DNA of 64,000 bases, taken from NCBI GenBank assembly GCA_000004985.1, contig GG738873.1, one strand, 5' to 3'. How positions within the stretch are numbered: position 1 is the first letter of the stretch; every line of letters begins with the position of its first letter. The notes below the pieces were generated by a model that worked only from the letters and a program-made list of their open reading frames with translations, did not search any database and was not told the origin of the DNA. Position numbers and translations under genes: made by a program. Shown here piece after piece: positions 1 through 15,288 of this stretch. Source of the DNA: Naegleria gruberi (lineage: Eukaryota).

Positions 1-1
1 A

Positions 2-751
2 GAATATTTCTACCTGTACGGAGGGGTGGTAAATAACACTATCTCTAATGCTATCCATAGATGCAAAACATCTGATCTGGAAAGTGGATGGGAGCTTACT
101 AGATTCAAACTTCCTTATAATGTATCAGCTGGTCAATCATTACTGGTAGATGACTTTTTCTATATTTTTGGTGGTCTTGTTAGTCTAAGTGATGACTCTG
201 ATAGCCCAAAGTTAAGTCTCAACGTTACTGACATGATTTTGAGATTCCACATCTCTAATCCCTTCACTCCTGAAATACTATCACAAAGATTACCACTAGG
301 TGTTTATAGTGGTCAAATTGCTAGAGTTAAGGATTATTTGTACATATTTGGGGGAAGAACTCAAGATCCAAATGCACCATACAGCGATATCTTGAAAGCG
401 TCCTATTTCAAACCTACCGTATTTGAAAACTCTTACTCTGTTTTGCCATACCAAGTTACAGATGGTTCGTTAATAGTTACAGAAAACTTTGTTGTTATAT
501 TTGGTGGCTTTTACAGTGGTCTTTACCCATACAATGCAGGAAGATTCAACTATGAAATTGTATCAACCCCATCTGATGAGCCTGTTGGTTCTTGGATGGT
601 GACTGATTATAAGATTCCAGGATTAATGAGGGCGACCCCTTCAATCATGGGTTCAACACTTTCTCTGTTCGGAGAGGATGTCAGAATGGTCAACACATTC
701 CCTCTCTCCAACAGAACTTTCACCATGTTTAACTGCACATTCTTGTTGTAA
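2..751 (+). CDS. Kelch-repeat beta-propeller protein, C-terminal portion; the 5' end lies outside the window
   Basis: The frame is open from position 2 (EYFYLYGGVVNNT...). The track 'M' at 26 is a GTG. Kelch blade motifs recur about every 50 aa (FYLYGG, FYIFGG, LYIFGG, VVIFGG) with W/Y-rich strands, giving at least 4 blades. Several N-x-S/T sequons are present. TAA stop at 749-751, with AATAAA shortly downstream. Confidence 0.6.
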   Translation, partial: EYFYLYGGVVNNTISNAIHRCKTSDLESGWELTRFKLPYNVSAGQSLLVDDFFYIFGGLVSLSDDSDSPKLSLNVTDMILRFHISNPFTPEILSQRLPLGVYSGQIARVKDYLYIFGGRTQDPNAPYSDILKASYFKPTVFENSYSVLPYQVTDGSLIVTENFVVIFGGFYSGLYPYNAGRFNYEIVSTPSDEPVGSWMVTDYKIPGLMRATPSIMGSTLSLFGEDVRMVNTFPLSNRTFTMFNCTFLL

Positions 752-1152
752 TAAAATTGTAAATTATTCTGTCATCAATCAATGACCTTTGTTGAACAGA
801 AAATAATTGTAATGTGATCATTTAATAGATTGAAGGTACAAAATGTTTTGTTTGGTCCTTTTCTAATTAAGGAGTAGAACTAAAACAGAAAGTGTTGATG
901 GAAAACTTTAAAACCAACAAACTCAAAGAAGAATAAAAAAAAACCAATAGTTTAATATAGAATGCTTTCTAATATGAGGGACGATGAGACCACAGAGAGA
1001 GGTGGTTTTGATGATTACCAGGAACCTTTTGACCAATTTCTTGAGAGCAGAAAAAGAAATTTGTCAGAATTATATAGAGATGTACTATAGACATCCAAGA
1101 TGAAGATCAAGTTACGGTTTCGGGATCGTCGAGAAAAATTTACTCAACACGT

Positions 1153-1398
1153 GTGTCTATTAAGAAATCTGACATTGAACTGAATTCCCTAGATGACATC
1201 AGTGACATGCCGCTACCACAACCTTTTTTTAAGCTAATAGAGAAATCCAAAATTCTATATTTGGATATTGGTACTGGTTCTTTCAAGTCTGGTAAGACAA
1301 TCACGGGTGAGTTCATACGGAGTAACTTTCATATATTTGAAAATGGTTTGCAATATTTTCCATACCAGCTACTATACCACAAGGAAAAGAAAGAATAG
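1153..1398 (+). CDS. ORF carrying an actin-fold (ASKHA/Hsp70-type) phosphate-1 motif; probable 5' exon or tandem N-terminal duplicate of the following ORF
   Basis: ILYLDIGTGSFKSGKT resembles the Hsp70 IDLGTTxS phosphate-1 loop. The track start is a GTG; the first in-frame ATG is at 1204 (MPLPQPFFKLIEKSKILYLDIGTGS). Strong donor-like GGTAAGA (1291) and GGTGAGT (1306) lie just after the motif. I could not find a phase-compatible splice to the next ORF. Confidence 0.3.
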   Translation: MSIKKSDIELNSLDDISDMPLPQPFFKLIEKSKILYLDIGTGSFKSGKTITGEFIRSNFHIFENGLQYFPYQLLYHKEKKE

Positions 1399-1975
1399 TG
1401 AAGAAGATACCGATTCACAAGGACACACTATGTACTTGGACCTAGGACACGGTACGACTGATTATACTGTCATGTCATATGATCAAAACCAAAAGAAATT
1501 CATTTTGAAAGATAGTGGTGGGTGGCCTTCTGGACTCTCATGGATTCAAAATTTGATCATGAGAGAGAAGAATTTAACTTTTCAAGAAGCCACCAAACTA
1601 CTAAATAAGCAATTCGACTCACTAGATTCCAATCCTGTTGACGGTATTGCTGATATTCAAGAAAAGATTTATAATGAGTTTGAGAAATTATTACAACCTT
1701 TGTTGTTGGTAATTTTTGAAAATTCAGTTACAAAGGTTTGCTTTGTAGGTGCTTTCATTCATTGCCAATACTTTAGAGAGATTATTAAGAAAATAATTTC
1801 ACACTCTTACATTTCCAAATTTGTAGAGGAAAGAAGAAAGTATTTCAAGGAAGAATTCAAGTTAAAGAAGTTGGAAAAGTTTTCCATCTTCTTCCCTCCA
1901 AAGGCAGGTGCTAGTTGCATCATTCAAGGCTTGATGCGTATGGTTGAGAATTCAAATGGACTCAACCACTGTTAA
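1268..1975 (+). CDS. Hsp70-like truncated ATPase (actin fold); the likely true start is the ATG at 1430
   Basis: MYLDLGHGTTDYTVMSYDQNQKKFILKDSGGWPSG parallels the Hsp70 N-terminus IDLGTTYSCVGV...DQGNRTTPS. The C-terminal part (VCFVGAFIHCQYFREIIKK...FFPPKAGASCIIQGLMRM) parallels Hsp70 LVGGSTRIP...NPDEAVAYGAAIQAAIL. The middle of the nucleotide-binding domain is absent, so this is about 180 aa instead of about 380. Confidence 0.45.
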   Translation: MVLVLSSLVRQSRVSSYGVTFIYLKMVCNIFHTSYYTTRKRKNSEEDTDSQGHTMYLDLGHGTTDYTVMSYDQNQKKFILKDSGGWPSGLSWIQNLIMREKNLTFQEATKLLNKQFDSLDSNPVDGIADIQEKIYNEFEKLLQPLLLVIFENSVTKVCFVGAFIHCQYFREIIKKIISHSYISKFVEERRKYFKEEFKLKKLEKFSIFFPPKAGASCIIQGLMRMVENSNGLNHC

Positions 1976-2227
1976 TTGAAAAAGAATCAACCAGTGACAA
2001 TTCAGTTCCAGTGATGTTACAAGAGATTGCCGAAGAGGGGCAGAAACTTGTTCTTACACCCACATGGGCCTCCTATGTTATGCACGTACTTCAAGATTTC
2101 GAAGTATTCGTCATTACATTGAGCTCTTGTATTGACCCTGAAAGCTTTGAAAATATTAATTTTGATAATTTCAAATACCTTGGAATAAACTAAGCTCCAA
2201 AGATTGGCAGCTGTCACACCCATGTTT

Positions 2228-2836
2228 GATAGAGACTCCATAAGAACAACCAAGAATAATTTTTTGGTCAATGCAGTCATTGATGCAGAAAAAGTGAGAC
2301 TCAACTTCTTCTTTTCTCATGTATCTCACTATTACATGAGTGTATTAGACATTAATAGAACTGGTAGAGTAGAACATATTCCAGTCTGTGGTATTGAACT
2401 ATTGGTATTCAAGGTTCGTGAAACTGAAACCAAGACATGGTATGGTCGTAATTATTATGTGAAAACCATTATTAGAGTGTGTTGCTCCAACCACTTAAAC
2501 AATTCACAAAATCTCATTCCACAGGAATATATTGGCATAATTTCTCCACAAAAGAAAAATGGTAAATATGTTACTGAACTTATTGGTGAGGATAAACCTG
2601 GTGATTATGATACTGTGAAAGCTCTACTGGATTCATTATGTGTTGGTTGTTCCGCAGAGCTTGAGGAAACCAACACCATTCATACAGTGTCCCCACACAC
2701 ATTACCTAAATACCGACGAGCTTTGCAAAATAATAAGCTAATTTGTGGTAATGTCTGCAACAAATGTTACTCAAAATATTGCAACTCATTTAGGACAGAT
2801 GCTTCCTTTTTAAAGAAAAAGAAGTCTAAAAAATAG
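2228..2836 (+). CDS. Hypothetical protein: Cys-rich C-terminal cluster and polybasic tail
   Basis: The track ORF starts on TTG at 2204; the first ATG is at 2228 (MFDRDS...). C-terminal motifs: CVGCSAELEE...LICGNVCNKCYSKYCNSF (C-x2-C ... C-x3-C-x2-C-x4-C) and a KKKKSKK tail. TAG stop at 2834-2836, followed by an A/T-rich 3' region with AATAAA. No recognisable family. Confidence 0.35.
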   Translation, partial: DRDSIRTTKNNFLVNAVIDAEKVRLNFFFSHVSHYYMSVLDINRTGRVEHIPVCGIELLVFKVRETETKTWYGRNYYVKTIIRVCCSNHLNNSQNLIPQEYIGIISPQKKNGKYVTELIGEDKPGDYDTVKALLDSLCVGCSAELEETNTIHTVSPHTLPKYRRALQNNKLICGNVCNKCYSKYCNSFRTDASFLKKKKSKK

Positions 2837-3324
2837 TCTTGTAAAATACTTGTAAATAATAAATTAAAATAATATATCAAATTGTTTAAAATGGTACCAT
2901 TTTTTCATTGAGGAAAGCTCGCTTCTTCTAATGAATGTTTCTCATGGAATAGATAATTATTTGGTAGATAATGGATGAATGACATGATGAAAATCTGATA
3001 ACAAATATGATGTTTATCAAATAGTACCTCTTTTAATATTCAATGTTCATCATCTTTGGATATCTTTGTTCTATTTCACCCATAATTCGCCAGCCCGCTA
3101 ACAGTTTTCACAAATCTGCCACCCATGTAATGGCACTCCATCCTTCAGGTGGATTTCTTCTCATTATTCAGTTCTTCTTTCTTGGTTCATACTTCAGGTG
3201 GTAAATCTTCTTTCTCCTCCTTTAATACTTTTTTTAACCAATAAAAACGAAAACAATGAGCAAGTACGCCCTTAATGATTGTGTTATAGTCTGTCTAACA
3301 AACCAATCAACAGAACTTTCAAAA

Positions 3325-3925
3325 ATATTTCAAAAATATTGGATCAACATCAGGTACATCATGCCTCTGTTGATTCTTGGAGTAGTTTCACATCTATTAA
3401 CTCCAAGAATTTCACCACATCATCTCATCATCATTTAAATAGTAGTATTAATAGTAATTTTTGGAATTTAATTGTTCATCATGATTTGGAAATAATTTTA
3501 TTATTCGGAAACATTCAAGTTGGTACATCATCATCGGAACAACTACCAACCATCATCATTGTTATTTATCATCATTACAATAGTAATATTTGTGGAAATA
3601 AATCTGATAATAGTAATATTTTAGTGAAATTCAATATTTTTCACTAAAATCATCATCACTACCAGATTTATATGATAATTTAGAAAACTTTCAATCTAGT
3701 ATTGTTCAGCATGGTCGATATATATTAGGTAAAATTACTTCCGAACATTTCCCTATTGGTTATCATAATGTTAGGTACATGTATATATTTCAACACCATA
3801 TCTCAACCTGTACTTCACCAACTTGAAAAATGTCTTTCATCACTACTATTCAAATACATAATAAACAATATATTTATTATCAGATTTTCCTAGTTTTGTG
3901 TTTTTACCAACTTCGGGTATTCATA
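3325..3925 (+). repeat. Direct-repeat copy A (about 600 bp, His-codon-rich CATCAT stretches); homologous to 8957-9560
   Basis: Collinear blocks are shared with copy B, for example gtttcacatct, aatagtagta(tt)aatagt, ccaaccatcatca, atttgtggaaat(a)aat, ttttcactaaa(a/t)tcatcatca, agtattgttc(a/g)g(c/a)atggtc(g/a)ata, tgtacttcaccaa, ataataaaca..atatttattat. About 70-75% identity by eye, same orientation. Confidence 0.7.
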
Positions 3926-5195
3926 GTCACCAATCATTATTCATGCCAAAAGTACACAGTCAATCTTCTTGGAACATTAATAAACTTTTATTAGTACTAT
4001 TGCAGATGTACAATATCAATTATTTCGTATTGTTTCGTTGAAATCATGAAGATCTTGATTTTTCTGTTTTTAATTAAATTTCACATCACATACACCATAT
4101 TTGTTGATAGTTACATATTCGCATTACCAAACCGAATTTATTTAGTACGCATAAATTTTATTCAATTTTATTGGTAAAATTATGCGAATTATTACGAATA
4201 AAAATACTATTTATTATTGTATTTTTAAATTAATTAACTGAAAATTATTGCCAATATTTATGGGTAATAATTCATGCAGAATGAAAATTGGTTGAGAGCA
4301 ATAAGACCTGGAAATCTGATCACACTGCACACACTATTAATCTTTGAAAGAAGAAGTGGCAACTGAGTGAATAAATAATTTGAACATAATGATTCGTAAC
4401 ACAACTCTCCAAGCACAAAAATTTCATCACAACAAACAACAGTATCCCTAATTGAGATATCTTCCCAATAAATCTATCGAATTGAATATACATTCCAACC
4501 TTAAGTGAGGATTTTCTAGCATAAAAAGTGCACAATCTTCAAAAATGTGTTGCCCAATGATAATTCGGAAATTGGCCATTTTCTTTTACAAAACAATACG
4601 GATTGAAATTTTGTAAATTGGATCAAAAGTTGAAAATAGATTCTTCTTTCTACAAAGGAGGTTTTTATTGTAAATTAAAAAGCTTTTTTCCATTTGGAAG
4701 AGTATACTTTGTTGATATTTCAATTAAATCATCCATTGCTTACTTTTAAATCTCTCTTCTTCCCAAGATTGTTCGTTTACACCTTTCCTTGCAATTCTAT
4801 TTTGTTTAGAATCTGCAATTTTAGGTAATTCAGGTAATTTCTCAACAATATCTTTCATTTCTGAATGCTCTCTCCTTTTAAATGAGTGTACACTCGCTTC
4901 AGGGCATTTAACAAGGTATTCATCAAATATTTTTGAAAATTAAGGTTGATTTTCTTTGTTTTGTATATTCTTTTTTTCAAAATATTCTTTTAGTGTTAAG
5001 CACATGTGTTTTGTGATTGCTTGATCATTCGTTCAAAATTAATCTCAAATGAAATTGCTGCAAATCCATCTTCTTGTTTGTATTCAAAATTAATCATTGC
5101 TTTTTTCCTTTCGAGTAATATGTATAGTAACAAGGAATTTCGCTAAAAGTTGATTCAGGGACCATGTATTTCAACATATCTCTAAGGAAATCGTA

Positions 5196-5580
5196 CCCAC
5201 TTTTACAAAATATCAAACACCAAATCATATCTGTGGCAATGTTTTTCCCACTTTTTTCTAGTGCTCCCTCTTTAAAAGAGGATATGCTTGGTTAAAGTCA
5301 CCACCACAAAATTCAATATTCGATATTAAGTAGTTGAGCGAAAAATCACTTTTCCCAAAAAGGTATATGATTTCATAACTCACTAATTATCTCAATTAAA
5401 ACAAAAGATTAAATATTCAAAAATGACCAGGATATAGTATACATGATATGAAACCATCCATGCAAAATTCAAGATTTATACCATGAATCAAACTACATAT
5501 TTCCTTTTAAAGAGGGTGCACTAGAAAAAAGCGGGAAGATATGGCACATCCGATTCTTTGTGAAATATTTCCGAAACTGG
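5196..5580. repeat. Foldback / MITE-like inverted repeat (about 85-bp arms, about 210-bp loop)
   Basis: The reverse complement of 5196-5285 (..catatcctcttttaaagagggagcactagaaaaaagtgggaaaaacattgccacagatatgatttggtgtttgatattttgtaaaagtgg) aligns with 5496-5580 (catatttccttttaaagagggtgcactagaaaaaagcgggaagatatggcacatccgattctttgtgaaatatttccgaaactgg) at about 80% identity. Confidence 0.5.
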
Positions 5581-6111
5581 AATTATTGAAAAGGGAGTTT
5601 CAATTGTATTAGCAATCAAATTAACTTTCCTGTCTTTTCACCTTCAAACATTGCTTTGAACAACTTACTGTAATTTTCAACAAGGAAAAAATTCATCAAG
5701 TTTGATAAAAAATAGAAAAGTTTCATCTACAATATTCTTGCATCTGCTCACACAATTCCCACCACAAACATGTTGATGGTAATATCACATCGTTGTTTCT
5801 TGTCCCTTTCTGGTTGGAGGGCCGTCAATTGCAGGAATTGTTGATTATTATTGGATGGTATTATTGTTGTTGGTTTAACACTTAGTGGAGAGGCTACAAC
5901 AAATTTAATCATCCCAAAGTGACTCTACTCTTCCAATCTATTCAAGTTTCAACATTGTGTGTTGTGGATATATTACATTATTGAGATACACACATGTATT
6001 ATTGAGATGATTAGTTGAGTGGATGATATTTCTTCAGTTAATTCTGGAATGAAGAAGGGAAAAACACTGGAAATCATTTTGGATAAAGTTATGTGATTTT
6101 AAGAGAATAGT

Positions 6112-6283
6112 AACATAGCAAGACTAGCTGGTGGAGAATTTTTAAGCTTACCATCCCAGCGCTGGGATGGTCAAAACCAGCTAGACAACATCAAAAACTC
6201 GCGACTAAAAATAATCAGCTGGTAAAAACTGACTTCGCAGATTTCAAGTAGCCAAAAAACAATTTTCCAGTCTTGCTATGTTG
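6112..6283. other. Compound nested palindrome, including a perfect 20-bp palindrome ccatcccagcgctgggatgg (6151-6170)
   Basis: Outer inverted repeat: aacatagcaagactag (6112-6127) pairs with ccagtcttgctatgtt (6268-6283), 15/16. Inner repeat: (ga)ctagctgg(tgg) pairs with ccagctag(aca). Centre: the perfect palindrome ccatcccag|cg|ctgggatgg. The region is GC-richer than its surroundings and lies about 400-550 bp upstream of the YR start. Confidence 0.4.
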
Positions 6284-6670
6284 AGGATAGGGATGAACCT
6301 TTTAATATTTGTCATAAGTGATTGAACAGTATTGTTAATTTGAGTTGATTAATTTTCCAATTAATTGTGTCAAGAGTTGATTTTTTGAAATAAGCTCTTG
6401 CAAAGTTAACATGTATATTCTAGAGAATTCCCATTGGTGGCAGTAACAAATTTTTTTGTCAATACACAAATTCAAAGTTTAAAAAATAATTGTGAAAAAG
6501 ATAAAATGTTATTTTTCTTTACTGTGCAACAGTGGCAAAACATTTCCACCACGAGTGAGGTACGAACGAGCTGGTGGATGATTTTTGCGCGATTTGTTGC
6601 GAAGTAAGAACAGCACTTTTTCTCACGAACAAATATTCCACTGATCTCTGGATATTATTCATTCAAAAAA

Positions 6671-7942
6671 ATGTCTCAAGAGGTTGATGATCTTGCCAGC
6701 GACCTGTTGCTAGAAGAGTTTGATAGTCTCACTGTAACAGGGGAGCAGTCTTTCAACTTTGTTCTTGGAGAAAATAGTATTCAAGCAGTCAAAACAAGGA
6801 AAAACTACAACAATCACAATATGGCACTCAAGGATTTTGCTCTTGAAAATCCAGATGTAAATCTGCAAGATTTACAGGTTGGTTGGTTGAAAGATTATTT
6901 TCAATTCCTCCATCAGAATAAGAAAGTAACTGGTCAAACATTATGGCAATATCACTCCAGTCTTGCAAAGCTGTATGCATGTAATTACAATCTTTCGATT
7001 AAGAATGTTGCCAATTATTCAGTTCTGTCTAGTTTCATCAAAGAATTAGAGAAAAACAGTGTAGACAGCACCGCAGGTGCTGAAGATATTCCATTAAGCA
7101 CAGTAATTGGTGTTCTCTCTCAATACCCAGAAGATGGATCAAATATTATGAAAAAGGCTTTTTTTGTATTCACCACAATAAGCTGTAAGAGATGTGATGA
7201 TGCTCATTGTTTACAATTTCATCATTTAACATTCAAAGAAGATTCAATCGATTTTGATATCTCACAAACTGCAACCAATCCAACTTCCAAAAAAACCAAG
7301 ACAGATGCCTGCACTGGTTGTATTGTCAAAAGCAATGTTCTAGAAATATGTCCCTTTAGAATTTTTAAGAAATACACTGATCAAATTGAAGACAAGAAAG
7401 GTCCTGTATTTAGGAGATGGGTTGGTAAAAAGGGTGGTGGTTATTTCGGAAAACAAGCAGTTGGTATTAACACCATGTACAGTTTCTTCCAAGATATTTT
7501 GAAAAGTGTTATTGAAGTATGTCCAGAGGACATACAAATTGAAGAAAGAACTGGTGCTAGAGCACCAGAACACCTTCGTTCCAACAAGACATCCACAAAA
7601 ATTGGTCTTGCTCGTTATACAGGACACACAGGAAGAAAAACAGCTGGTACCATCATTTCCACCATTGCTGCAATGACTGATCTTGAAAGAAAGAAATATG
7701 GTGATTGGAAGAATATGAAAACGGTTGAAACCTACAGCAACAACAATCCTGAAACCAGAAAAATTGCTAGCAAGAAGGTTGTTGATCATTTATCAGATGC
7801 TTTTAAAAGATCCAATGATGAAGAAGAAGAAAGTCAATATGCTCCTGTAGCAAAAAAGAGCAAGTCTTCCGAATCAAGCTTCAGTAATGATGGAAAGACA
7901 TTCGTCTTCAAAAACTGCTCAAATATCACAATAAACTTCTAA
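6671..7942 (+). CDS. Tyrosine recombinase (site-specific integrase, Cre/Crypton-like); intact 423 aa
   Basis: ATG start in an A-rich context, TAA stop, no interruptions. N-terminal integrase SAM-like core-binding domain (..KNYNNHNMALKDFALEN..LQVGWLKDYFQFL..TGQTLWQYHSSLAKLY). Catalytic hexad recognisable by Cre spacing: R174 (ISCKRCDD), K~210 (SKKTKTD), H319-x-x-R322 (TGHTGRKTAG), W346 (YGDWKN) and Y355 (TVETY). H to W is 27 residues and W to Y is 9, versus 26 and 9 in Cre. Confidence 0.8.
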   Translation: MSQEVDDLASDLLLEEFDSLTVTGEQSFNFVLGENSIQAVKTRKNYNNHNMALKDFALENPDVNLQDLQVGWLKDYFQFLHQNKKVTGQTLWQYHSSLAKLYACNYNLSIKNVANYSVLSSFIKELEKNSVDSTAGAEDIPLSTVIGVLSQYPEDGSNIMKKAFFVFTTISCKRCDDAHCLQFHHLTFKEDSIDFDISQTATNPTSKKTKTDACTGCIVKSNVLEICPFRIFKKYTDQIEDKKGPVFRRWVGKKGGGYFGKQAVGINTMYSFFQDILKSVIEVCPEDIQIEERTGARAPEHLRSNKTSTKIGLARYTGHTGRKTAGTIISTIAAMTDLERKKYGDWKNMKTVETYSNNNPETRKIASKKVVDHLSDAFKRSNDEEEESQYAPVAKKSKSSESSFSNDGKTFVFKNCSNITINF

Positions 7943-8956
7943 CATTTTTATTTCCAGTAAAAAGTGGTGTTATGCACTCATTTATGCCAGCACAGTTGGA
8001 ACTCGGAACAAGAAGAAATAAGCAAGGACGCTGTTATGCACTCACTGTTCGGAGAGGATTATGTTAACTCGCGAGCAGTCCATAACAGGTCCTGGAGTGA
8101 GAAAAAACAATTTAATTTAATCGTAAGTTAGATTTTAATAGCTAATAGTTTGTTTAATTTTAATGTTCAGATTGATGAAATAGTGTTGAACTGTTGCCGA
8201 GCTTATAAGAAGAAGAATTTGAAAGAATTGACGGTGTGCCGGTAAATCCTGTCTAACGGGATCCGTCAGATGTAATAAGCTGTCAAATGGGACAGTCAGC
8301 AGTAAGAGGGAGCAAGAATGGAATTAAGGGAAATACTAAAAATTCTCAATTGTAGAATAATCACTAAAATCAAAGATTACACTCTTTCTGTCTCAAATTT
8401 AAGAATGACATGATATAATTTGACTAAATTGATTAAAACACTGTTGGGGAACTACCCTTCTTTTTTAGAGAAGTTTCCTTCTCAAACAATTCAGGTAAAT
8501 AGTAAACTGTGGAAAGTTTAAATTTGATTTTTTATTGAAAATGAAAAATATGGATTAATTGATATGAGTGTGATTACTATAATGTGCAAGATGTTGAAAA
8601 AGTTGGTTATCTTTGAAATTCAATTTAAAAGTGCACTAAGAAAGCAAATGCTGAACTAGATGAGTTGATACAAATAAACGGTGAGACGGGCAACGGGATG
8701 AACGGGATTCAGGCGTTTCTTATTCTAAACGGGAGATTCTCTCCGCTTAATACTACAAGGTGGCAATTCAAATATGGAGAGAGAGCTTAGTAACATTAAT
8801 AAAATGAATGAGACATAATTACTTTTTGAATTTTCCTTTTATATTTGAAACTTTGACTCTGCTTACTTTCAATTGTTTGTTTAATATGGCTTGCTTGACT
8901 GAAGAATAAGCAATAACTAACACATCCAAACATCACCAGACTGGATTTTGAAGAAA

Positions 8957-9560
8957 AAATATTTCAACATCTAGTACGTGATGTACTTTGATGATTTACG
9001 GAGTGGTTTCACATCTTTATACCACAATAATTTCAGCTCGTCATCTCTACATCATCTATATAATAGTAGTAATAGTGATTTTTTATTGGAAAATTATCAT
9101 CATGAAATTAGAAATTATTTTTCATCATGGAAAAATTCATGTTGGTGATACCATCATCTGATCATTTACCAACCATCATCAATGATATTTTCCATCGATA
9201 TAATAATAGTATTTGTGGAAATTAATTTTCAGTAATTTAATTTTAGTTGAAAATCACCATTTTCACTAAATTCATCATCAGTGTGGAATCTACTGTACAA
9301 ATTGGAAATCTGTCAACATAGTATTGTTCGGAATGGTCAATAGTATCAGAAAAGATTTTGTCCGATGACTTTTGGTCAAGTTATGATAGGGAAAGGTATG
9401 TGTGAAATTTGAAAATACACATTATACTACCCATCATGTACTTCACCAAATCAAAAAGTTTCTTCTAGTAGTACTATTTAAATTGATAATAAACATCATA
9501 TTTATTATAATTTATTCCTTTTCTTTTGTGTTGGTCAAGTTCCGGTTGGGTTGACTAAGA
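8957..9560 (+). repeat. Direct-repeat copy B, homologous to 3325-3925
   Basis: Same collinear anchor blocks as copy A, offset by about 5.62-5.63 kb. Copy B lacks the long His-rich ORFs seen in copy A, so those ORFs are not conserved coding sequence. Confidence 0.7.
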
Positions 9561-10071
9561 ATTGGTTATTTACTCGCCCAAATTAAATTTCCAAATCATG
9601 TAACTTTCCCATGTATTAGTAAATATCAAATTAATAATAAATTTCACTTTTTTTTTAATTTTTTATATAAGGCAGTCCTTAACACTCTTTTTTTCCCTTA
9701 ATTCTAAATAACTCTTGGATCAGATGACGAAACCTGAATTTTTTGAATAATTATGGATATATATAAATAATGACAATGCTACTAACTGTAATTGACATGT
9801 TTTATTATTTGCGAATAAACTTGAAACAAATCTATTCAAAGATTTGCTAATTTGTTAGTTGAAATTACAAAATCAAACAATGAAACTTGATCTGGTAACA
9901 TATATAAATGCACACATCGAGTGGGGAAAGTTTCATGAAATAATAATGTGAAATTTGATCTTGGGAATGAAATCGTTAAGAACAAGTAGATTAAAGCCAA
10001 CAACAAATGGAATAGCCTATTTTATTCAATTCATATTAGAACAATTTTAGAATGTTACTGTGTTATTGAGC

Positions 10072-10716
10072 TTAATATAATTTAGACTTCAAATGTAACA
10101 TTTCCATCATCTTTTGCAAGCCTTTGGATTGAATTTCTTGTAGACGAGGATAGTTACGAGAGTTGTGAATGACAGATTCAAATCGAGCCATCAAAACTTG
10201 AACTCTATTCAACAACGCCTCATTGGAAGAGTAATGACGAAGTGTTTTGGTTGAGACAAAACTTATGACATCTCCATCGGATAGTCTATCACCAACTTCG
10301 TAGTTACGTCTAATCTCCTTGATAGTAGTTAGACCCCAATGTTTACCAGTGAAATCCTCATCAGCGGATTCCTCATCAAGGTCTTCATCAAGTTGATTAG
10401 CTTGTTGCAGAATAGGAGGAACAGCTTCAAGATGCTTTATTCTCTCACCCAAAGAAGTGATGGCGTTGAAAATAGCATCAAGGTTCTTTTCAGAACCAGC
10501 TTGGTTGTTATCCAAGGTTTTGCTTGTTGGGTCAACCACAGAGGGGAGTGAAGCTGAGCTACCATTGTCAGTTACTAGGATGTAACCTGACTTGTAGGTA
10601 GAAGTTGAAGATTTGCTTACTGAAACTCTTTGACGAATGTTGGAGATATTCGCTTTGCTTGGTGTTTGAACCATTTCAATATACTTAATTTTTTTGAGCA
10701 TAAAATTATTTATCAA
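10072..10716 (-). CDS. Hypothetical protein (about 214 aa, Ser/Thr-rich N-terminal part, acidic middle); probably the terminal exon of a minus-strand gene
   Basis: Long ORF of non-repetitive composition ending at a TAA. The track start is a TTG; the first ATG gives MLKKIKYIEM. Upstream on the minus strand a GAC-AAG|GTAATA donor-like site (about 10823) and ..ATTGAG|TTG acceptor-like site (about 10717) could join the 10775-10963 ORF. No family recognised. Confidence 0.45.
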   Translation of the reverse strand: MINNFMLKKIKYIEMVQTPSKANISNIRQRVSVSKSSTSTYKSGYILVTDNGSSASLPSVVDPTSKTLDNNQAGSEKNLDAIFNAITSLGERIKHLEAVPPILQQANQLDEDLDEESADEDFTGKHWGLTTIKEIRRNYEVGDRLSDGDVISFVSTKTLRHYSSNEALLNRVQVLMARFESVIHNSRNYPRLQEIQSKGLQKMMEMLHLKSKLY

Positions 10717-10778
10717 CTCAATTTTATTGTTTACAATTTGTCGAAATGCTAACGTTGCATCGTTCCTCGCAACTCTAC
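10628..10778. repeat. About 150-bp segment (5' end and first codons of the 10072-10716 gene) duplicated at 13243-13390
   Basis: ..ctttgcttggtgtttgaaccatttcaatatacttaatttttttgagcataaaattatttatcaactcaattttattgtttacaatttgtcgaaatgctaacgttgcatcgttcctcgcaact.. is near-identical to the 13243-13390 copy. Confidence 0.7.
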
Positions 10779-10963
10779 ATTATTGAATCTTCTGTAGCCT
10801 TGTTGATTGTTGGATTGATAAGTATTACCTTGTCCTTGGTTGAAGTTGTTGTAGTTGTAGCCAGCTTGTCTAGTATTGTATCTAGTGAGGAACTTACGAA
10901 AATTAAGGGTTCTGCTAGCCCATTTGCTGACTTTTTCAATAGTTTCTGTGTTTGAATGGGCAT
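10775..10963 (-). CDS. Possible upstream exon of the 10072-10716 gene (MPIQTQKLLKKSANGLAEPLIFVSSSLDTILDKLATTTTTSTKDK...)
   Basis: Short ORF whose 3' part contains AAG|GTAATA, a consensus-like donor, in frame. Otherwise unsupported. Confidence 0.2.
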   Translation of the reverse strand: MPIQTQKLLKKSANGLAEPLIFVSSSLDTILDKLATTTTTSTKDKVILINPTINKATEDSIM

Positions 10964-11826
10964 TAAAAATGACTTTGAAGCAGCTGAAAACTTCTCTAAC
11001 AGCTACAAATCAGGAGGTTCACTTAACCAAATCACCTCCAAACAACAAGAGAAGACGATTAAATCTGCTGAAAAAGTAAAAACAGCAGAAGATTAGATTT
11101 AACTCAGAAATATTCTAAATAAATTCAAATCCTTGAAGAATAAGTGGTAAATCAAGAATATCACTCTCTCAAACGCTTGCAGATTTCAATGACTCACCAA
11201 ACATTCTTTGGTAAGAGTCGATGATGTGGTTTTTAAACCAATCATCTAGTTCATCAGCAACTCTTGCACTTTTACCAGAAACCTCTTCAGATGGGTTGGA
11301 CTCAAACAATTCCATCGAAGAAGCGAGAGTAGAAGTACTTTGTGAACCAACCTTGGCGTTGTTTGAGTCTTTGTCAGGTGATATCTTTTGCTGATTGTTC
11401 TTTTTCGTGTCTTGAAGGCATAGCAGAACTATTAGATGAATTTGAGGTGGAAGGAGTTAGAATAATAACTCGTTTCTCGCTACCTGCAGAAGGTGAGCTA
11501 AGGTCTTTCGTTTTCTTGTTGTTCTTTGGTGTAGTTGGTGTTTTGTAATTCTAGAGTGAAACAATTTGTTGAACGTGTAGAATGTATGTGTTCTGAATGA
11601 TTATAATAAATTGAATGTTATTTGCTTAAATTTATTGAGTTTCATGTTCAAAAAATTTATCTAAACTAAATGTCTTCAAGAAACATTTTAACTTCTGCTT
11701 CTAAAGCAAGAAATGATAGGTCCCACCCTGTTCTTATCGAAGTTTACTGAGATAAAGTAGTGTTTCTTGAAAACAACAATTGAATAAACTAATAATAGAA
11801 AGTATGCTCAAAAAAATTGTCATACT

Positions 11827-12954
11827 ATGGTCGCTAAGAAGCCTCAAGATATTGACTCCTCTTTATCTGATGAAGATCTCCCAGCAGTTGAAGTAGAATA
11901 CCTCATAACACTAGTGAAAGCAAGAAAACAACAAGCTGCTAAGAAGCTTAGAAAGTTAAAGGCCATGTCACCTGTAGCTAATAGAAATAAGCGCAAACAA
12001 TTTACTTCAGTTTCATCATCTAACAGTGCCTTAGATGATGGTATTTCAACTGTTGTTTCCAGTTCGTTGTTAAACAATTCAACATTGTTGGATAGTTCTT
12101 CAACTGCACCCTCTTCGTCAAACAATTCGTCTTCTTCCAATTCAGGTAGAGATAGTTTTACCAGTAGTTCATCTGAACATGATATCATGGTGATCAAAGC
12201 CCAAATGCAAGAAATGATTGGAGTTTTGAGAACCGTAACAGGAAATATCTCTGAACTTACTAAGAAAGTTCAGGAGAGAGAAGAAGAATCAGATGATGAT
12301 TTTGTTAATCCAGAAGCTATATCTTTAGAAGTTTGGTTACGTCAAACTTATAGAGACCTTAGAAGTTCTTACAATGTTCCTTCATCTATTGGAGATGATT
12401 TATTACTTTCTGCAGTATCCTCCGAGATACTTAAAGACCGTAAACAAGAGGAGACCAAGAGAAGAATTCAATATTTGCTCCTTAAATACAAGGATGTGAT
12501 TTCCAAGTTTGCCCCAGACATTAGATTGGATGAGATTAACAGTATTGGTTATTCTAAACTAGTAGAGTTAACTCAAATCAAAATTGAATTGTTGGAATAT
12601 GCATTGAATTCTCCACTTGATTTTACAGTCATGACAGAGATTACAGAACTTTGTAGAATGATTTGCAAAGTTGAAGCCCTCTTCCTTAAAGAAGGTTTAC
12701 AAGTTTCCACTTTCGATGTTGGTAGAGAATTCCTTAACAGATACATTTCTACTAATAGTTTCGAAACTGCTGCCGAAAGTGAACTTCATAATATTAGAAC
12801 AACATATCATTACTACAAAGCAACCAAGCAGCAACAAGGTCCAAAGGGAATTACCAAGAAGTATTCTAAGAAGAAACCGTTTCAAAAGAAAAACAATAAG
12901 GGTCAAGGAAACGATGGTAAATTCCAAGGAAAAGATAAGGATAAGTCAGAATGA
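11827..12954 (+). CDS. Hypothetical Ser-rich / Lys-rich protein (375 aa), intronless
   Basis: True ATG start (ctATGgtcgct) and TGA stop. The N-terminus is acidic with a basic stretch (KARKQQAAKKLRKLK). A long Ser/Asn low-complexity region is followed by a predicted helical C-terminal half and a polybasic tail (KKYSKKKPFQKKNNKGQG). No family recognised. Overlapping ORFs on the opposite strand are treated as shadows. Confidence 0.5.
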   Translation: MVAKKPQDIDSSLSDEDLPAVEVEYLITLVKARKQQAAKKLRKLKAMSPVANRNKRKQFTSVSSSNSALDDGISTVVSSSLLNNSTLLDSSSTAPSSSNNSSSSNSGRDSFTSSSSEHDIMVIKAQMQEMIGVLRTVTGNISELTKKVQEREEESDDDFVNPEAISLEVWLRQTYRDLRSSYNVPSSIGDDLLLSAVSSEILKDRKQEETKRRIQYLLLKYKDVISKFAPDIRLDEINSIGYSKLVELTQIKIELLEYALNSPLDFTVMTEITELCRMICKVEALFLKEGLQVSTFDVGREFLNRYISTNSFETAAESELHNIRTTYHYYKATKQQQGPKGITKKYSKKKPFQKKNNKGQGNDGKFQGKDKDKSE

Positions 12955-13130
12955 CTCTTCCACTAATAAAGATTTTTATCCAATCAAAGCAGGTTCTATA
13001 ACTGAATCACCAATTTGGTGAAACAGTTACCTGACTCTAAAACCCATTTGTCTCTAATCAATTTGTTACTCTTTTTATTATAATCTATGAAGAACATTTA
13101 ACTTGATAAATTTTTCAAATTATAAATATT

Positions 13131-13180
13131 ATTTCTCCAAATAAAACAATAAAGAATTTCGTTGATAAACCAATGGGTAG
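13131..13180 (+). repeat. 48-bp perfect direct repeat, copy 1 (atttctccaaataaaacaataaagaatttcgttgataaaccaatgggt)
   Basis: 47-48 nt identical to 13394-13443, separated by about 263 bp. Confidence 0.8.
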
Positions 13181-13242
13181 AAGCTCACTCAACATATTCT
13201 TCATCCAAAGGATGAGGTATGTTGCTCGGAAATGCTGCCTTT

Positions 13243-13390
13243 TAGGTCATTGACTTTATTCAGCAATGATTTTGCTTGGTGTGTTTACCATGTTTCTTAA
13301 TTTTTTTGAGCATAAAAATTATTTATCAACTCAATTTTATTGTTTACAATTTGTCGAAATACTAACGTTGCATCGTTCCTCGCAACTAGC
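13243..13390. pseudogene. Degenerate pseudo-copy of the 5' end of the 10072-10716 gene
   Basis: About 80% identity to 10628-10778. The reverse-complement reading has a 1-nt insertion (aatttttatgctc versus aattttatgctc) that destroys the ORF. It carries a consensus TACTAAC (13360-13366) followed by ..cgcaaCTAG on the plus strand. Confidence 0.55.
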
Positions 13391-13393
13391 CAT

Positions 13394-13443
13394 ATTTCTC
13401 CAAATAAAACAATAAAGAATTTCGTTGATAAACCAATGGGTTA
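13394..13443 (+). repeat. 48-bp perfect direct repeat, copy 2, abutting the stop codon of the YR relic
   Basis: Identical to 13131-13178. The last 3 nt (tta, 13441-13443) are the reverse-complement TAA stop of the minus-strand YR fragment. Confidence 0.8.
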
Positions 13444-13680
13444 GTCCAGAGAAAATAGAGTGTTAGTGAAATTCTTGCCAGCTAGGCCTTCAGATCTAAG
13501 GTAAGGAAATAAACTTTTTTCCTTTTTATGTCTTGCACCGACCATTAGATCAGTTGTAGACATACCCTTTCTGAGTCCTTCTGTGATAGCACCTATTCTA
13601 AGGCTGTGACCTGAGACTGTTACGCCTTGATCTACTATACCCACTGCATTCTTTAGTATTTTTGAAATACCATCTGAATC
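13441..13680 (-). pseudogene. Tyrosine-recombinase C-terminal catalytic fragment (integrase/DIRS-like H-x-x-R...H...Y variant); 5'-truncated relic or terminal exon
   Basis: The open frame is only about 80 codons (..DSDGISKILKNAVGIVDQGVTVSGHSLRIGAITEGLRKGMSTTDLMVGARHKKEKSLFPYLRSEGLAGKNFTNTLFSLD*). GHSLR is the box II H-x-x-R. The second His is 26 residues after the first, and the Tyr (FPYLR) is 9 after that, which is exact integrase/Cre spacing. The track start is a GTG and a stop lies immediately upstream. AT-rich non-coding DNA and microsatellites follow on the 5' side. Confidence 0.6.
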
Positions 13681-13780
13681 TTAGTAGTACCGTTTCAGTT
13701 TTACCTAGTTGTAATAAACACCGGAAATTTATTTATGTTTTTAACTATAAAAGCTGAAAGTAGTCAAATGTTGATATTTG

Positions 13781-13782
<2 letters not shown>

Positions 13783-13812
<30 letters not shown>
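13783..13812. repeat. (AT)n microsatellite, about 15 units
   Basis: Seen directly in the sequence. Confidence 0.9.
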
Positions 13813-13815
<3 letters not shown>

Positions 13816-14301
13816 AATAGATGTTAGATATTAGTTGTTCCATTTATTTTTAAACCTATCACTCCATCAACCTCCATGAATCTAGTTGTCTATTTCTTGT
13901 TGTAAGAGTTTTTCTTTGTTTTAATAAACAACTATCACAACTCTAATTTTACTACTTCTAATAGCAGTGTTTTTGTAATATTTTTACAAAGTTTGTTCTT
14001 TCTTTGAATTCATTTTCTTTGGATTTACCATAAAGATTATTACTTCCAATCAATAATCTTCATAATGATAATACCAACTTTAGAAGATTTTTAAAAATTA
14101 ATGGTTTTTTATATTTTATATATTACTTTGTTAAGCTTTTCTAAATTTCAAATCGATAAATTTTTGAAAATTTATTTTAGCTTCTTAATTTTCAATTAAT
14201 TTCATTATCTTTATATCTAAATCACTTTTAAATGCTTTTTCAGATAAACCAATTAAACCACCATCTTATAAACCAACTTGCAACAAAAATTTTTTCGGAT
14301 G

Positions 14302-14327
14302 TATATATATATATATATATATATATA
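14302..14327. repeat. (TA)n microsatellite, about 13 units
   Basis: Seen directly in the sequence. Confidence 0.9.
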
Positions 14328-14366
14328 AATGCATGCGAAAATTTTTATTTTATTTATATTAAATAT

Positions 14367-15288
14367 CTAATATGACAAACATATCCCACCAACGCATGTA
14401 TGAAAATTCGTATTTTTNNNNNNNNNNNNNNNNNNNNNNNNNNNNNNNNNNNNNNNNNNNNNNNNNNTATTATATGTGAAATTACCAATTGTAATATTAT
14501 TGCTTGTAAAGTTACTAATTGTAAAGTTACTAATTGTAATGTTATCACTCGTAAGGTTACGGATTGTTAAATTAGTATATGTGAAATTACCAATTGTAAT
14601 GTTATCACTTGTAAAGTTACTATTTGTAAAGTTACCAATTGTAATATTATCACTCGTAAGGTTAGTGTTTGTAAAGTTACTGCTTGTTGAATTAGTATAT
14701 GTGTAATTACCAATTGTAATATTATCACTTGTAAAGTTACTATTTGTAAAGTTACTGATCGTTAAATTAGTATATGTGTAATTACCACTTGTGGTATTCT
14801 CATATGTAAAATTATAATAGGTAAAATTGTTGAGTGTCAAATTCGGTATTTCCGTAATTCTCATCACCTCGTTTTCTGGATAATTTGCATCATTTTGGCA
14901 ATTTTGTCCCGTAATAGAATTTCTAAAACATTTACAAAAATCAGGCTTGGTACAATTACCATTTCCACTGCAAACAAGTGGATCTTCTGATTTAACACCA
15001 AAACAAATTGGTAAAGAACAATTTGATCCATAATATCCTTCTCTGCAAGTGGTTACATTTAAGAGACCTGTTGCATTCTTCTTGGAGCAAAGATACAAAT
15101 TATCACCTGTTGGGTTTGTACAATCAATTTCAAGATCAAGAGTTCCATTAATCTTTGTATTATTACATTTACCTTCAGGATTGGTACATGTCGCCATACT
15201 AACATTTGTTTGACACTGTGTGCCAATAAAACCAACTTTGCAAGAACATTGATTTGGTTTCTCACAATAACCATTTCCTGAACAAACC
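14367..15288 (-). CDS. Secreted or surface glycoprotein: EGF-like Cys-rich domains followed by a tandem N-x-T sequon repeat stalk; partial (runs into gaps)
   Basis: The frame is open from the 15289 gap, which lies upstream of the track 'M' at 15197. At least 3 EGF-like modules: VCSGNGYCEKPNQCSCKVGFIGTQCQ; CTNPTGDNLYLC..TCREGYYGSNCSLPIC; CSGNGNCTKPDFCKCFRNSITGQNCQ. About 40 N-x-T/S sequons follow in about 7-aa-period repeats (NFTNSNFTSDNITIGNFTYTN...). The gene is interrupted by the 50-N gap and ends ..HTCVGGICLSY* at 14367. Confidence 0.6.
14418..14467. other. Assembly gap (50 N) inside the glycoprotein gene
   Basis: Run of n. Confidence 0.95.
14468..14830 (-). repeat. Coding tandem repeat (about 21-nt / 7-aa period nested in about 75-120-nt higher-order units) encoding the N-x-T sequon array
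   Basis: Repeated blocks: ttgtaaagttact(a/g)(a/t)ttgtaa(a/t)gttatcact(c/t)gtaa(a/g)gttac.. and tatgtg(a/t)aattaccaattgtaat(a/g)ttatcac. The assembly gap sits at the repeat edge, consistent with collapse. Confidence 0.75.

Follow-up and report, generated by a model that had tools for sequence, protein, structure and literature searches.

Cryptons, the eukaryotic recombinase elements that lack a reverse transcriptase (RT), have been described from animals, fungi and stramenopiles (PMC3212892). The same survey reports that animal Cryptons contain no C-terminal domain (section 8), that CryptonF carries a GCR1_C domain, and that the DUF3504 genes are domesticated Crypton recombinases in which most of the catalytic tetrad has been lost (PMC3212892). 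Here, we analyzed a stretch of 64,000 nucleotides (nt) from the heterolobosean amoeba Naegleria gruberi (assembly GCA_000004985.1, contig GG738873.1), called the window below, of which bases 1-15288 are real sequence, interrupted by a 50-N gap at 14418-14467, and the remainder is N. The window harbors an intact Cre-like tyrosine recombinase gene, and the analysis indicated that this gene probably represents the recombinase of a low-copy or solitary Crypton-like (RT-less) element, or a lone relic of such an element, belonging to a heterolobosean clade. The gene itself is located as follows.

6671..7942, + strand: tyrosine recombinase gene, 423 codons plus stop, single exon (open reading frame list, database identity, family profile and model)

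The open reading frame (ORF) encodes 423 amino acids (aa), starts with an ATG in an A-rich context and is uninterrupted, and a stop-free run of 423 codons would arise by chance at about 1e-15 given the local base composition. Its product is identical (100% identity, 100% coverage) to the NCBI entry 'predicted protein [Naegleria gruberi]' (P0001), so both the eukaryotic context and the single-exon gene model are real. The N. gruberi scaffold carrying the gene is 461,873 bp long, and the guanine-cytosine (GC) content around the gene is 30-35%, with the gene itself at the local level. An earlier interpretation made from the letters alone (the sequence-only reading) had described a full-length Cre-like recombinase in a eukaryotic setting, with an uninterrupted frame and an ATG in an A-rich context, and the exact ORF, the codon reading and the identity to the N. 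gruberi protein bear out this description. Judging from the intact ORF and the intact catalytic set, the recombinase may still be functional. An antisense ORF at 7340-7789 (149 codons) was also listed; nothing supports it, and it is most probably a side effect of the recombinase coding strand.

An exhaustive HMMER pass over 1.84 billion representative proteins returned 43 relatives, among which 24 were aligned and 19 were not typed. The domains, active-site codons and conserved segments recognized with the help of this alignment are listed below.

6785..6976, + strand: N-terminal SAM-like core-binding domain, aa 39-102 (Pfam PF13102, Phage_int_SAM_5)
7088..7780, + strand: catalytic domain, approximately aa 140-370 (conserved columns and alignment to Cre)
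7190-7192, 7199-7201, 7298-7300 and 7625-7627, + strand: active-site codons of R174, D177, K210 and H319, respectively
7634-7636, 7706-7708 and 7733-7735, + strand: active-site codons of R322, W346 and Y355, respectively
7517..7618, + strand: insertion of the heterolobosean clade ahead of the H-x-x-R box, approximately aa 283-316 (consensus LPxDVQxEExTG...RIGLxRYTGH)
7901..7939, + strand: conserved extreme C-terminal tail, FVFKNCSNITINF, last 13 residues (F-x-N-C...I-N motif)

The N-terminal region matched PF13102 at E 6.8e-7, with 30 bits against a curated cut-off of 22.3, and the core-binding helices (H40-59, H70-82 and H88-106) were modelled by AlphaFold2 (AF2) with a predicted local distance difference test score (pLDDT) >90. 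In the 24-sequence family alignment, R174, G265, H319, T327 and Y355 are invariant, while Y235, R322 and W346 are conserved in ≥90% of the sequences; K210 is invariant as well among the eight closest sequences, and D177 constitutes the acidic seventh active-site residue. The sequence-only reading had assigned a SAM-like core-binding domain to the N-terminus, a catalytic set of R174, K~210, H319, R322, W346 and Y355, and spacings of 27 residues from H to W and 9 from W to Y. All of these assignments hold: the first is matched by PF13102, the residues stand at the named positions in conserved columns of the family alignments, and the codon positions of the ORF give the same two spacings.

When the family profile was compared with the PDB sequences, Cre was obtained first (E 4.3e-14), and the family motifs R-x-x-[DE], S-K-T-G, G-H-x-x-R-R, G-x-W and Y align on R173/E176, K201, H289/R292, W315 and Y324 of Cre. 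PF00589 was matched by 20 of the 24 family members (E ≤0.01). The AF2 model of the ORF protein reached a pLDDT of 84.4, with Cre as its best structural match; AF2 run from the single sequence reached a pLDDT of 35 and was unusable. With the ORF protein alone, PF00589 produced no match even at E 10, and neither did a phmmer search of the PDB. The missing PF00589 match is a sensitivity limit and therefore does not contradict membership of the superfamily; the assignment of the catalytic domain required the family profile, a single sequence being insufficient. Profile and model both lead to Cre, the catalytic residues occupy conserved positions, and the placement of the protein in the tyrosine recombinase superfamily (Cre/XerD/lambda Int type), for which the sequence-only reading had proposed a check, is thus supported by sequence comparison and modelling.

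The insertion of about 35 residues ahead of the H-x-x-R box was found in the ORF protein and in the relatives P0002-P0014, with a shorter and divergent version in P0015, and it is missing from the CryptonI-type rows of the 24-sequence alignment. Its residues P285, E291, G312 and R315 are invariant among the eight closest sequences, and it was modelled at a pLDDT of about 89-96. The F-x-N-C...I-N tail can be aligned across most of the family, animal CryptonI-type members included, with N-C located within the final 45 residues in 16 of 24 family sequences, and it is present too in the Acrasis ORFs and in locus L007 (described below). No structure is inferred for this tail because the confidence of the model is low there. 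Pfam detected no GCR1_C, no other C-terminal domain and no added domain in the ORF protein, which agrees with the animal Cryptons, likewise devoid of a C-terminal domain. The earlier claim of a C-terminus without GCR1_C therefore stood; the tail nevertheless has a feature of its own, as its last 13 residues carry the conserved motif.

A word-indexed protein search with the single sequence recovered only the ORF protein itself, and the same search with the family alignment added one protein, from the ant Vollenhovia. The closest relative, P0002, shares 42% identity over the full length, keeps both the N- and C-terminal tails and lies on a 1.6-kb contig (L002) from run ERR14788033. Three relatives are Acrasis kona proteins named 'Tyr recombinase domain-containing'. 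The A. kona DNA contains at least four copies; the four located are distributed over three contigs, with one pair arranged tail to tail. Three copies are in uninterrupted frames of about 510-610 codons, while the fourth (L004) has 299 codons. The A. kona copies are about 27-29% identical to the Naegleria protein and have His at the position of the Naegleria Trp. The tail-to-tail pair, on L003, consists of diverged recombinase paralogues at 1271-2206 (+) and 3781-2591 (-), about 260 bp apart.

Three further copies, L007 among them, were obtained from JGI metagenome sample 3300037860. A TTC38-like neighbour on L007 is 50% identical to A. kona, about 40% to animals and 35% to N. lovaniensis; since this neighbour is closest to A. 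kona, the contig most likely derives from another heterolobosean. Origin by neighbour gene covers this one contig among the three from the sample. The L007 recombinase ORF contains, at 4040-4150, an insert of about nine codons with two in-frame stops directly before the lysine of S-K-T-G, which might represent either a very small intron or an insertion that inactivates the gene. The remaining, more distant relatives are animal proteins, and all named relatives are eukaryotic (Acrasis and an ant). N. fowleri and N. lovaniensis are absent from the 30 relatives whose cluster records were read, with N. lovaniensis proteins being present in the collection searched. The sequence-only reading had suggested a check for stop-free paralogues elsewhere in the genome, and none was found in the annotated proteome of N. 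gruberi.

To place these proteins among the Cryptons, catalytic cores from the survey of Kojima and Jurka 2011 (PMC3212892, Additional file 4) were used to build small profiles. The animal relatives score 81-193 bits on the CryptonI profile and 16-67 bits on the CryptonA, DIRS/PAT or prokaryotic profiles. The Naegleria-clade profile gave the following scores.

Against CryptonI cores: 40-62 bits
Against DIRS/PAT cores: 13.5-30 bits (three of four at 25-30)
Against Cre: 18 bits
Against CryptonA cores: 8-17 bits
Against CryptonS/F cores: <9 bits

The N. gruberi protein itself scores -0.5 bits on the CryptonF profile, and no family member matches PF12012 at E ≤0.01. Outside Heterolobosea, CryptonI-type animal proteins were the only relatives found among the 43 hits (19 not typed). 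The Crypton affinity noted in the sequence-only reading thus appears to hold, with CryptonI-scoring outside relatives emerging from the 1.84 billion representatives. Because the forward profile favors CryptonI, the only full-length outside hits are CryptonI-type and the C-terminal tail is common to both groups, the proteins were placed beside CryptonI. On these sequence comparisons, we call them a separate heterolobosean clade with the CryptonI elements as apparently nearest described kin; they probably constitute a new clade of the known Crypton kind and no new kind of system.

Evidence bearing on mobility was obtained from the related loci. In L007, the recombinase unit is approximately 2.3 kb long, includes a 166-codon ORF of unknown function, and has a fragment of the same FMO-like gene on either side (Pfam positions 106-214 and 290-467); joined together, the two fragments form one uninterrupted FMO match. 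A putative joining exon in this gene adds 2 bits only. The unit is bracketed by three exact matches of TGCCAAYRGTTTCTM, at 2601(+), 2649(-) and 4847(+), forming an inverted pair on the left and one copy on the right, and also by an 11-nt perfect direct repeat. In A. kona, a 60-nt direct repeat occurs on both sides of the L005 ORF and again upstream of the L004 copy. These short repeats around the L007 and L005 copies fit a recombinase element with repeated end sites. Next to the recombinase, L006 and L007 carry cellular genes of ordinary kinds (LCAT, FMO, ankyrin and TTC38), and the L001 recombinase gene is located among ORFs without a Pfam match. No RT was found beside the recombinase in the seven related loci, and translated and nucleotide comparisons across the loci disclosed nothing in common except the recombinase.

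In the window, the recombinase gene sits in 6.4 kb of DNA that otherwise contains no ORF ≥80 codons. Pfam detected no domain in stop-free segments ≥35 aa from the six frames of 3650-6670 and 7943-10071, nor in the complete stop-masked six-frame translation of 3919-6670. No signal of an RT, RNase H, methyltransferase, gag or DDE transposase is thus seen in the flanks, and this speaks against a retroelement of the DIRS/Ngaro type. The tRNA and Rfam scans of the window and the related loci gave nothing above threshold. Several repeats and candidate sites were observed around the gene.

6112..6282, no strand assigned: nested inverted repeat of 171 bp, outer arms perfect over 14 bp, located 390-560 bp ahead of the ATG
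6150-6171: perfect 22-nt palindrome ACCATCCCAGC/GCTGGGATGGT, central in the 171-bp inverted repeat
6126..6143, + strand: 18-nt direct repeat AGCTGGTGGAKRATTTTT, first copy
6569..6586, + strand: 18-nt direct repeat, second copy, 85 bp upstream of the ATG
7974..7999, + strand: short 3′ motif GCACTCATTTATGCCAGCACAGTTGG, about 30 nt past the stop, at the same position in L002 (1448-1470)
3332..3918, + strand: direct repeat of about 590 bp, upstream copy (self-BLAST)
8955..9546, + strand: direct repeat of about 590 bp, downstream copy (self-BLAST)

The 22-nt palindrome is unique in the window and was obtained in 0 of 100 shuffles, and the DNA fold z-score is -4.1 for the 171-bp unit and -5.35 for its core. 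This inverted repeat, which has the look of a miniature inverted-repeat transposable element, is a candidate recombinase site or regulatory element, and the palindrome could be read as 8-bp arms with a 6-bp spacer, by analogy with the layout of a recombinase core site. GC-rich inverted repeats are also located upstream of the gene in L002 (z -4.8), L006 (z -13.6), L007 (z -3.3) and L005, the comparison covering recombinase loci alone. The one in L006, at 3057-3177, is very strong, has 40-nt arms and is separated by about 160 bp from the recombinase ORFs downstream; no other inverted self-match occurs in the 7.7-kb contig. As a degenerate pattern, the 18-nt repeat has two exact matches and one with three mismatches at 10987-11004, against an expectation of 0.07, and 0 of 100 shuffles reach three. 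The alignment of the 3′ motif with L002 was equalled in 15 of 300 shuffles and is weakly above chance. No terminal inverted repeats bracketing the ORF were found above shuffles in the window. In L002, a perfect 18-nt inverted repeat (138-155 / 1614-1631) flanks the gene, with the second arm reaching right up to the contig end, and this repeat may be real or an assembly effect.

The 590-bp direct repeats are 71% identical over 610 columns (E 1e-68) and bracket a 6.2-kb unit holding the gene. No target-site duplication was recognized at them, and they may be the ancient termini of a larger unit or a pair of copies of a separate dispersed repeat. An inverted 29-nt piece of this repeat was also observed at 2989-3017.

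If the gene belongs to a Crypton-like element, its mode of action might follow that of Cre and Flp. By this analogy, a recombinase tetramer would assemble on two short inverted-repeat sites, Tyr355 would cleave the DNA to form 3′-phosphotyrosyl links, and the strands would be exchanged via a Holliday junction, so that the element would be excised as a circle and then reinserted at a short matching sequence. The upstream GC-rich palindromic structure would, speculatively, be the best candidate binding site. The C-terminal helix of Cre makes contact between subunits, and the conserved C-terminal tail might conceivably supply a comparable inter-subunit contact here.

A low-copy or solitary Crypton-like element remains, in our view, the probable origin of the gene; the N. 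gruberi genome is reported to contain only 0.28% transposable elements (bioRxiv 10.64898/2026.06.24.734286), which fits a single recombinase copy. Several observations weigh against this origin. Only one copy is visible in the annotated proteome of N. gruberi, with no paralogue of the recombinase. In the reverse test with the small profiles, the N. gruberi protein scores about equally on CryptonI (24 bits), CryptonA (22 bits) and DIRS/PAT (27 bits). To our knowledge, animal Cryptons have no terminal repeats, and the 590-bp repeats at 71% identity are unlike them in this respect and would imply a great age if they were the element ends. The L007 15-mer TGCCAAYRGTTTCTM is absent from the window, as would be expected if each diverged recombinase had its own site. 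In addition, synonymous sites are saturated both against L002 and between two Acrasis copies (proportions of synonymous differences, pS, 0.78 and 0.87; of non-synonymous differences, pN, 0.41 and 0.35), and because of this saturation no ratio of the two substitution rates (dN/dS) was obtained.

A single copy, in a genome that holds very few transposable elements (bioRxiv 10.64898/2026.06.24.734286), would also suit a recombinase of Crypton descent that the host has retained (domesticated) in a still catalytic form for some cellular task, for example the resolution or rearrangement of a particular DNA site. The ORF is intact between 71%-identical repeats, so that, if these repeats date the insertion, selection must have kept it; P0002 is conserved over its full length with both tails, and the perfect palindrome, unique in the window, and the 18-nt repeat lie upstream. 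We nevertheless regard this as a clearly minor possibility. No N. fowleri or N. lovaniensis protein occurs among the 30 relatives whose cluster records were read, which makes a conserved host function within the genus unlikely; most catalytic residues are gone from the known DUF3504 genes (PMC3212892), in contrast to the N. gruberi protein, which keeps all of them, and the relatives are multi-copy, with one copy inside a host gene. A more specific version is that a live single-copy site-specific recombinase is kept for N. gruberi's own use and acts on the upstream palindrome or on a cellular circle such as the ribosomal DNA (rDNA) plasmid. The rDNA of Naegleria is an extrachromosomal plasmid, and Flp serves the yeast 2-micron circle. 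We give this version only a small chance; if true, it would represent a domesticated Crypton recombinase with its chemistry kept, unlike all known DUF3504 cases.

A retroelement origin appears improbable, if a little less so than that specific version. According to it, the gene would be the recombinase of a decayed DIRS/Ngaro/PAT-type retrotransposon, the 590-bp repeats would be its terminal or split repeats, and the upstream 2.7 kb would once have held gag and RT/RNase H. Degenerate DIRS1-like copies have been reported in N. gruberi (seven copies in six families; PMC3266345), the 6.2-kb unit bracketed by the direct repeats could accommodate an upstream RT, and the DIRS/PAT profiles score the N. 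gruberi protein about as CryptonI does. The translated flanks, however, gave no RT, RNase H, methyltransferase or gag signal, and the seven other loci have no adjoining RT, the recombinase alone being common to them. No DIRS recombinase was recognized among the 43 relatives (the 24 typed are heterolobosean or CryptonI and 19 were not typed), and an intact recombinase next to a fully erased RT would be hard to explain without selection. The unannotatable 6.4 kb around the gene, and the ORFs without a Pfam match around the L001 gene, could also point to the integrase of an integrated virus or episome (giant-virus, virophage or plasmid-like). This seems very unlikely, as a scan of 2.9 million viral contigs gave no relative, the viral structure library gave generic phage integrases only (≤14% identity), the neighbours in L006 and L007 are cellular, with TTC38 closest to Acrasis, and genes for a capsid, a polymerase or packaging are absent from the window. 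The least credible explanation, close to negligible, is that the gene reflects contamination by bacterial or phage DNA or was recently transferred from a bacterium: the sole Pfam match of the ORF protein is a 'phage integrase' SAM-like domain, but the gene is located on the 461,873-bp N. gruberi scaffold at local GC with kelch and EGF-like genes adjacent, every named relative is eukaryotic, and the prokaryotic reference recombinases score low (Cre 18 bits vs CryptonI 40-62).

Besides the recombinase gene, the ORFs of the window encode a kelch-repeat protein, an EGF-like Asn-rich repeat protein and two unknown paralogues. The paralogous ORFs, 10072-10716 (-) and 11827-12954 (+), are distantly related (24% identity, E 4e-7) and have no Pfam match. 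Two repeat pairs were observed near them: 10654-10774 / 13271-13387, with a 73-nt core at 99% identity within a wider region of about 120 nt at 90%, and a perfect 49-nt pair at 13130-13178 / 13393-13441. Together, these ORFs and repeats suggest a locally duplicated gene family or another repeat element. The ORF 14367-15197 (-) has an EGF-like, Cys-rich head followed by N-x-T/S-rich pentapeptide repeats, is broken by the 50-N gap, and contains a 15-nt tandem repeat array at 14453-14873. Several stop-free stretches of 45-70 codons in different frames were found at 4690-5540 (-); they have the look of a frameshifted pseudogene and no Pfam match, and a 42-nt inverted repeat (5245-5286 / 5496-5537, 88% complementary) is located at the upstream edge of this region.

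In the searchable literature, with Repbase not covered, no report of a Crypton was found for Naegleria, Acrasis or other Discoba; Cryptons and tyrosine recombinases go unmentioned for these amoebae in the paper on the A. kona genome, in a survey of transposable elements of heteroloboseans from 2026 and in a CryptonA paper of the same year. A heterolobosean clade with the insect-type Crypton layout and tail would widen the host range to a very distant branch of eukaryotes, and it is relevant to the question of whether RT-less recombinase elements have an ancient origin or have spread horizontally. A compact eukaryotic Cre-like enzyme with nearby candidate sites might also become a recombination tool. 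The picture of how such recombinases work is unchanged, with no new principle involved.

The known systems compare with the N. gruberi gene as follows. The DUF3504 genes (ZMYM2-4, QRICH1, KIAA1958 and KCTD1) differ from the N. gruberi protein, which keeps every catalytic residue and has no PF12012. CryptonF and CryptonS of fungi, oomycetes and diatoms are likewise RT-less eukaryotic recombinase elements, but their profile scores are near zero and the GCR1_C domain of CryptonF is missing from the N. gruberi protein. The DIRS1/PAT/Ngaro recombinases are eukaryotic, have a similar core and give comparable profile scores (25-36 bits), and direct repeats bracket the window gene; they differ in that the window and the related loci lack an RT, an RNase H and a methyltransferase. 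Cre of phage P1 (PDB 1CRX, 1KBU) shares the two-domain layout, the seven active-site residues including Trp, and the W-Y spacing of 9, whereas identity is only 13-14% and the N. gruberi protein is longer, by about 40 residues at the N-terminus and about 50 at the C-terminus, with an insertion before H-x-x-R and a eukaryotic host. CryptonI of insects (Kojima and Jurka 2011, PMC3212892) differs by about 20-25% identity, by the heterolobosean insertion of about 35 residues before H-x-x-R, by the His for Trp of the Acrasis copies, and by its host, which is an animal and not a discoban amoeba. CryptonI nevertheless resembles the N. gruberi gene in being a stand-alone recombinase with no RT and no C-terminal DNA-binding domain, in the box II pattern YTGH-x-x-RR...G-W-K-S...Y-I, and in the extreme C-terminal F-x-N-C...I-N tail.

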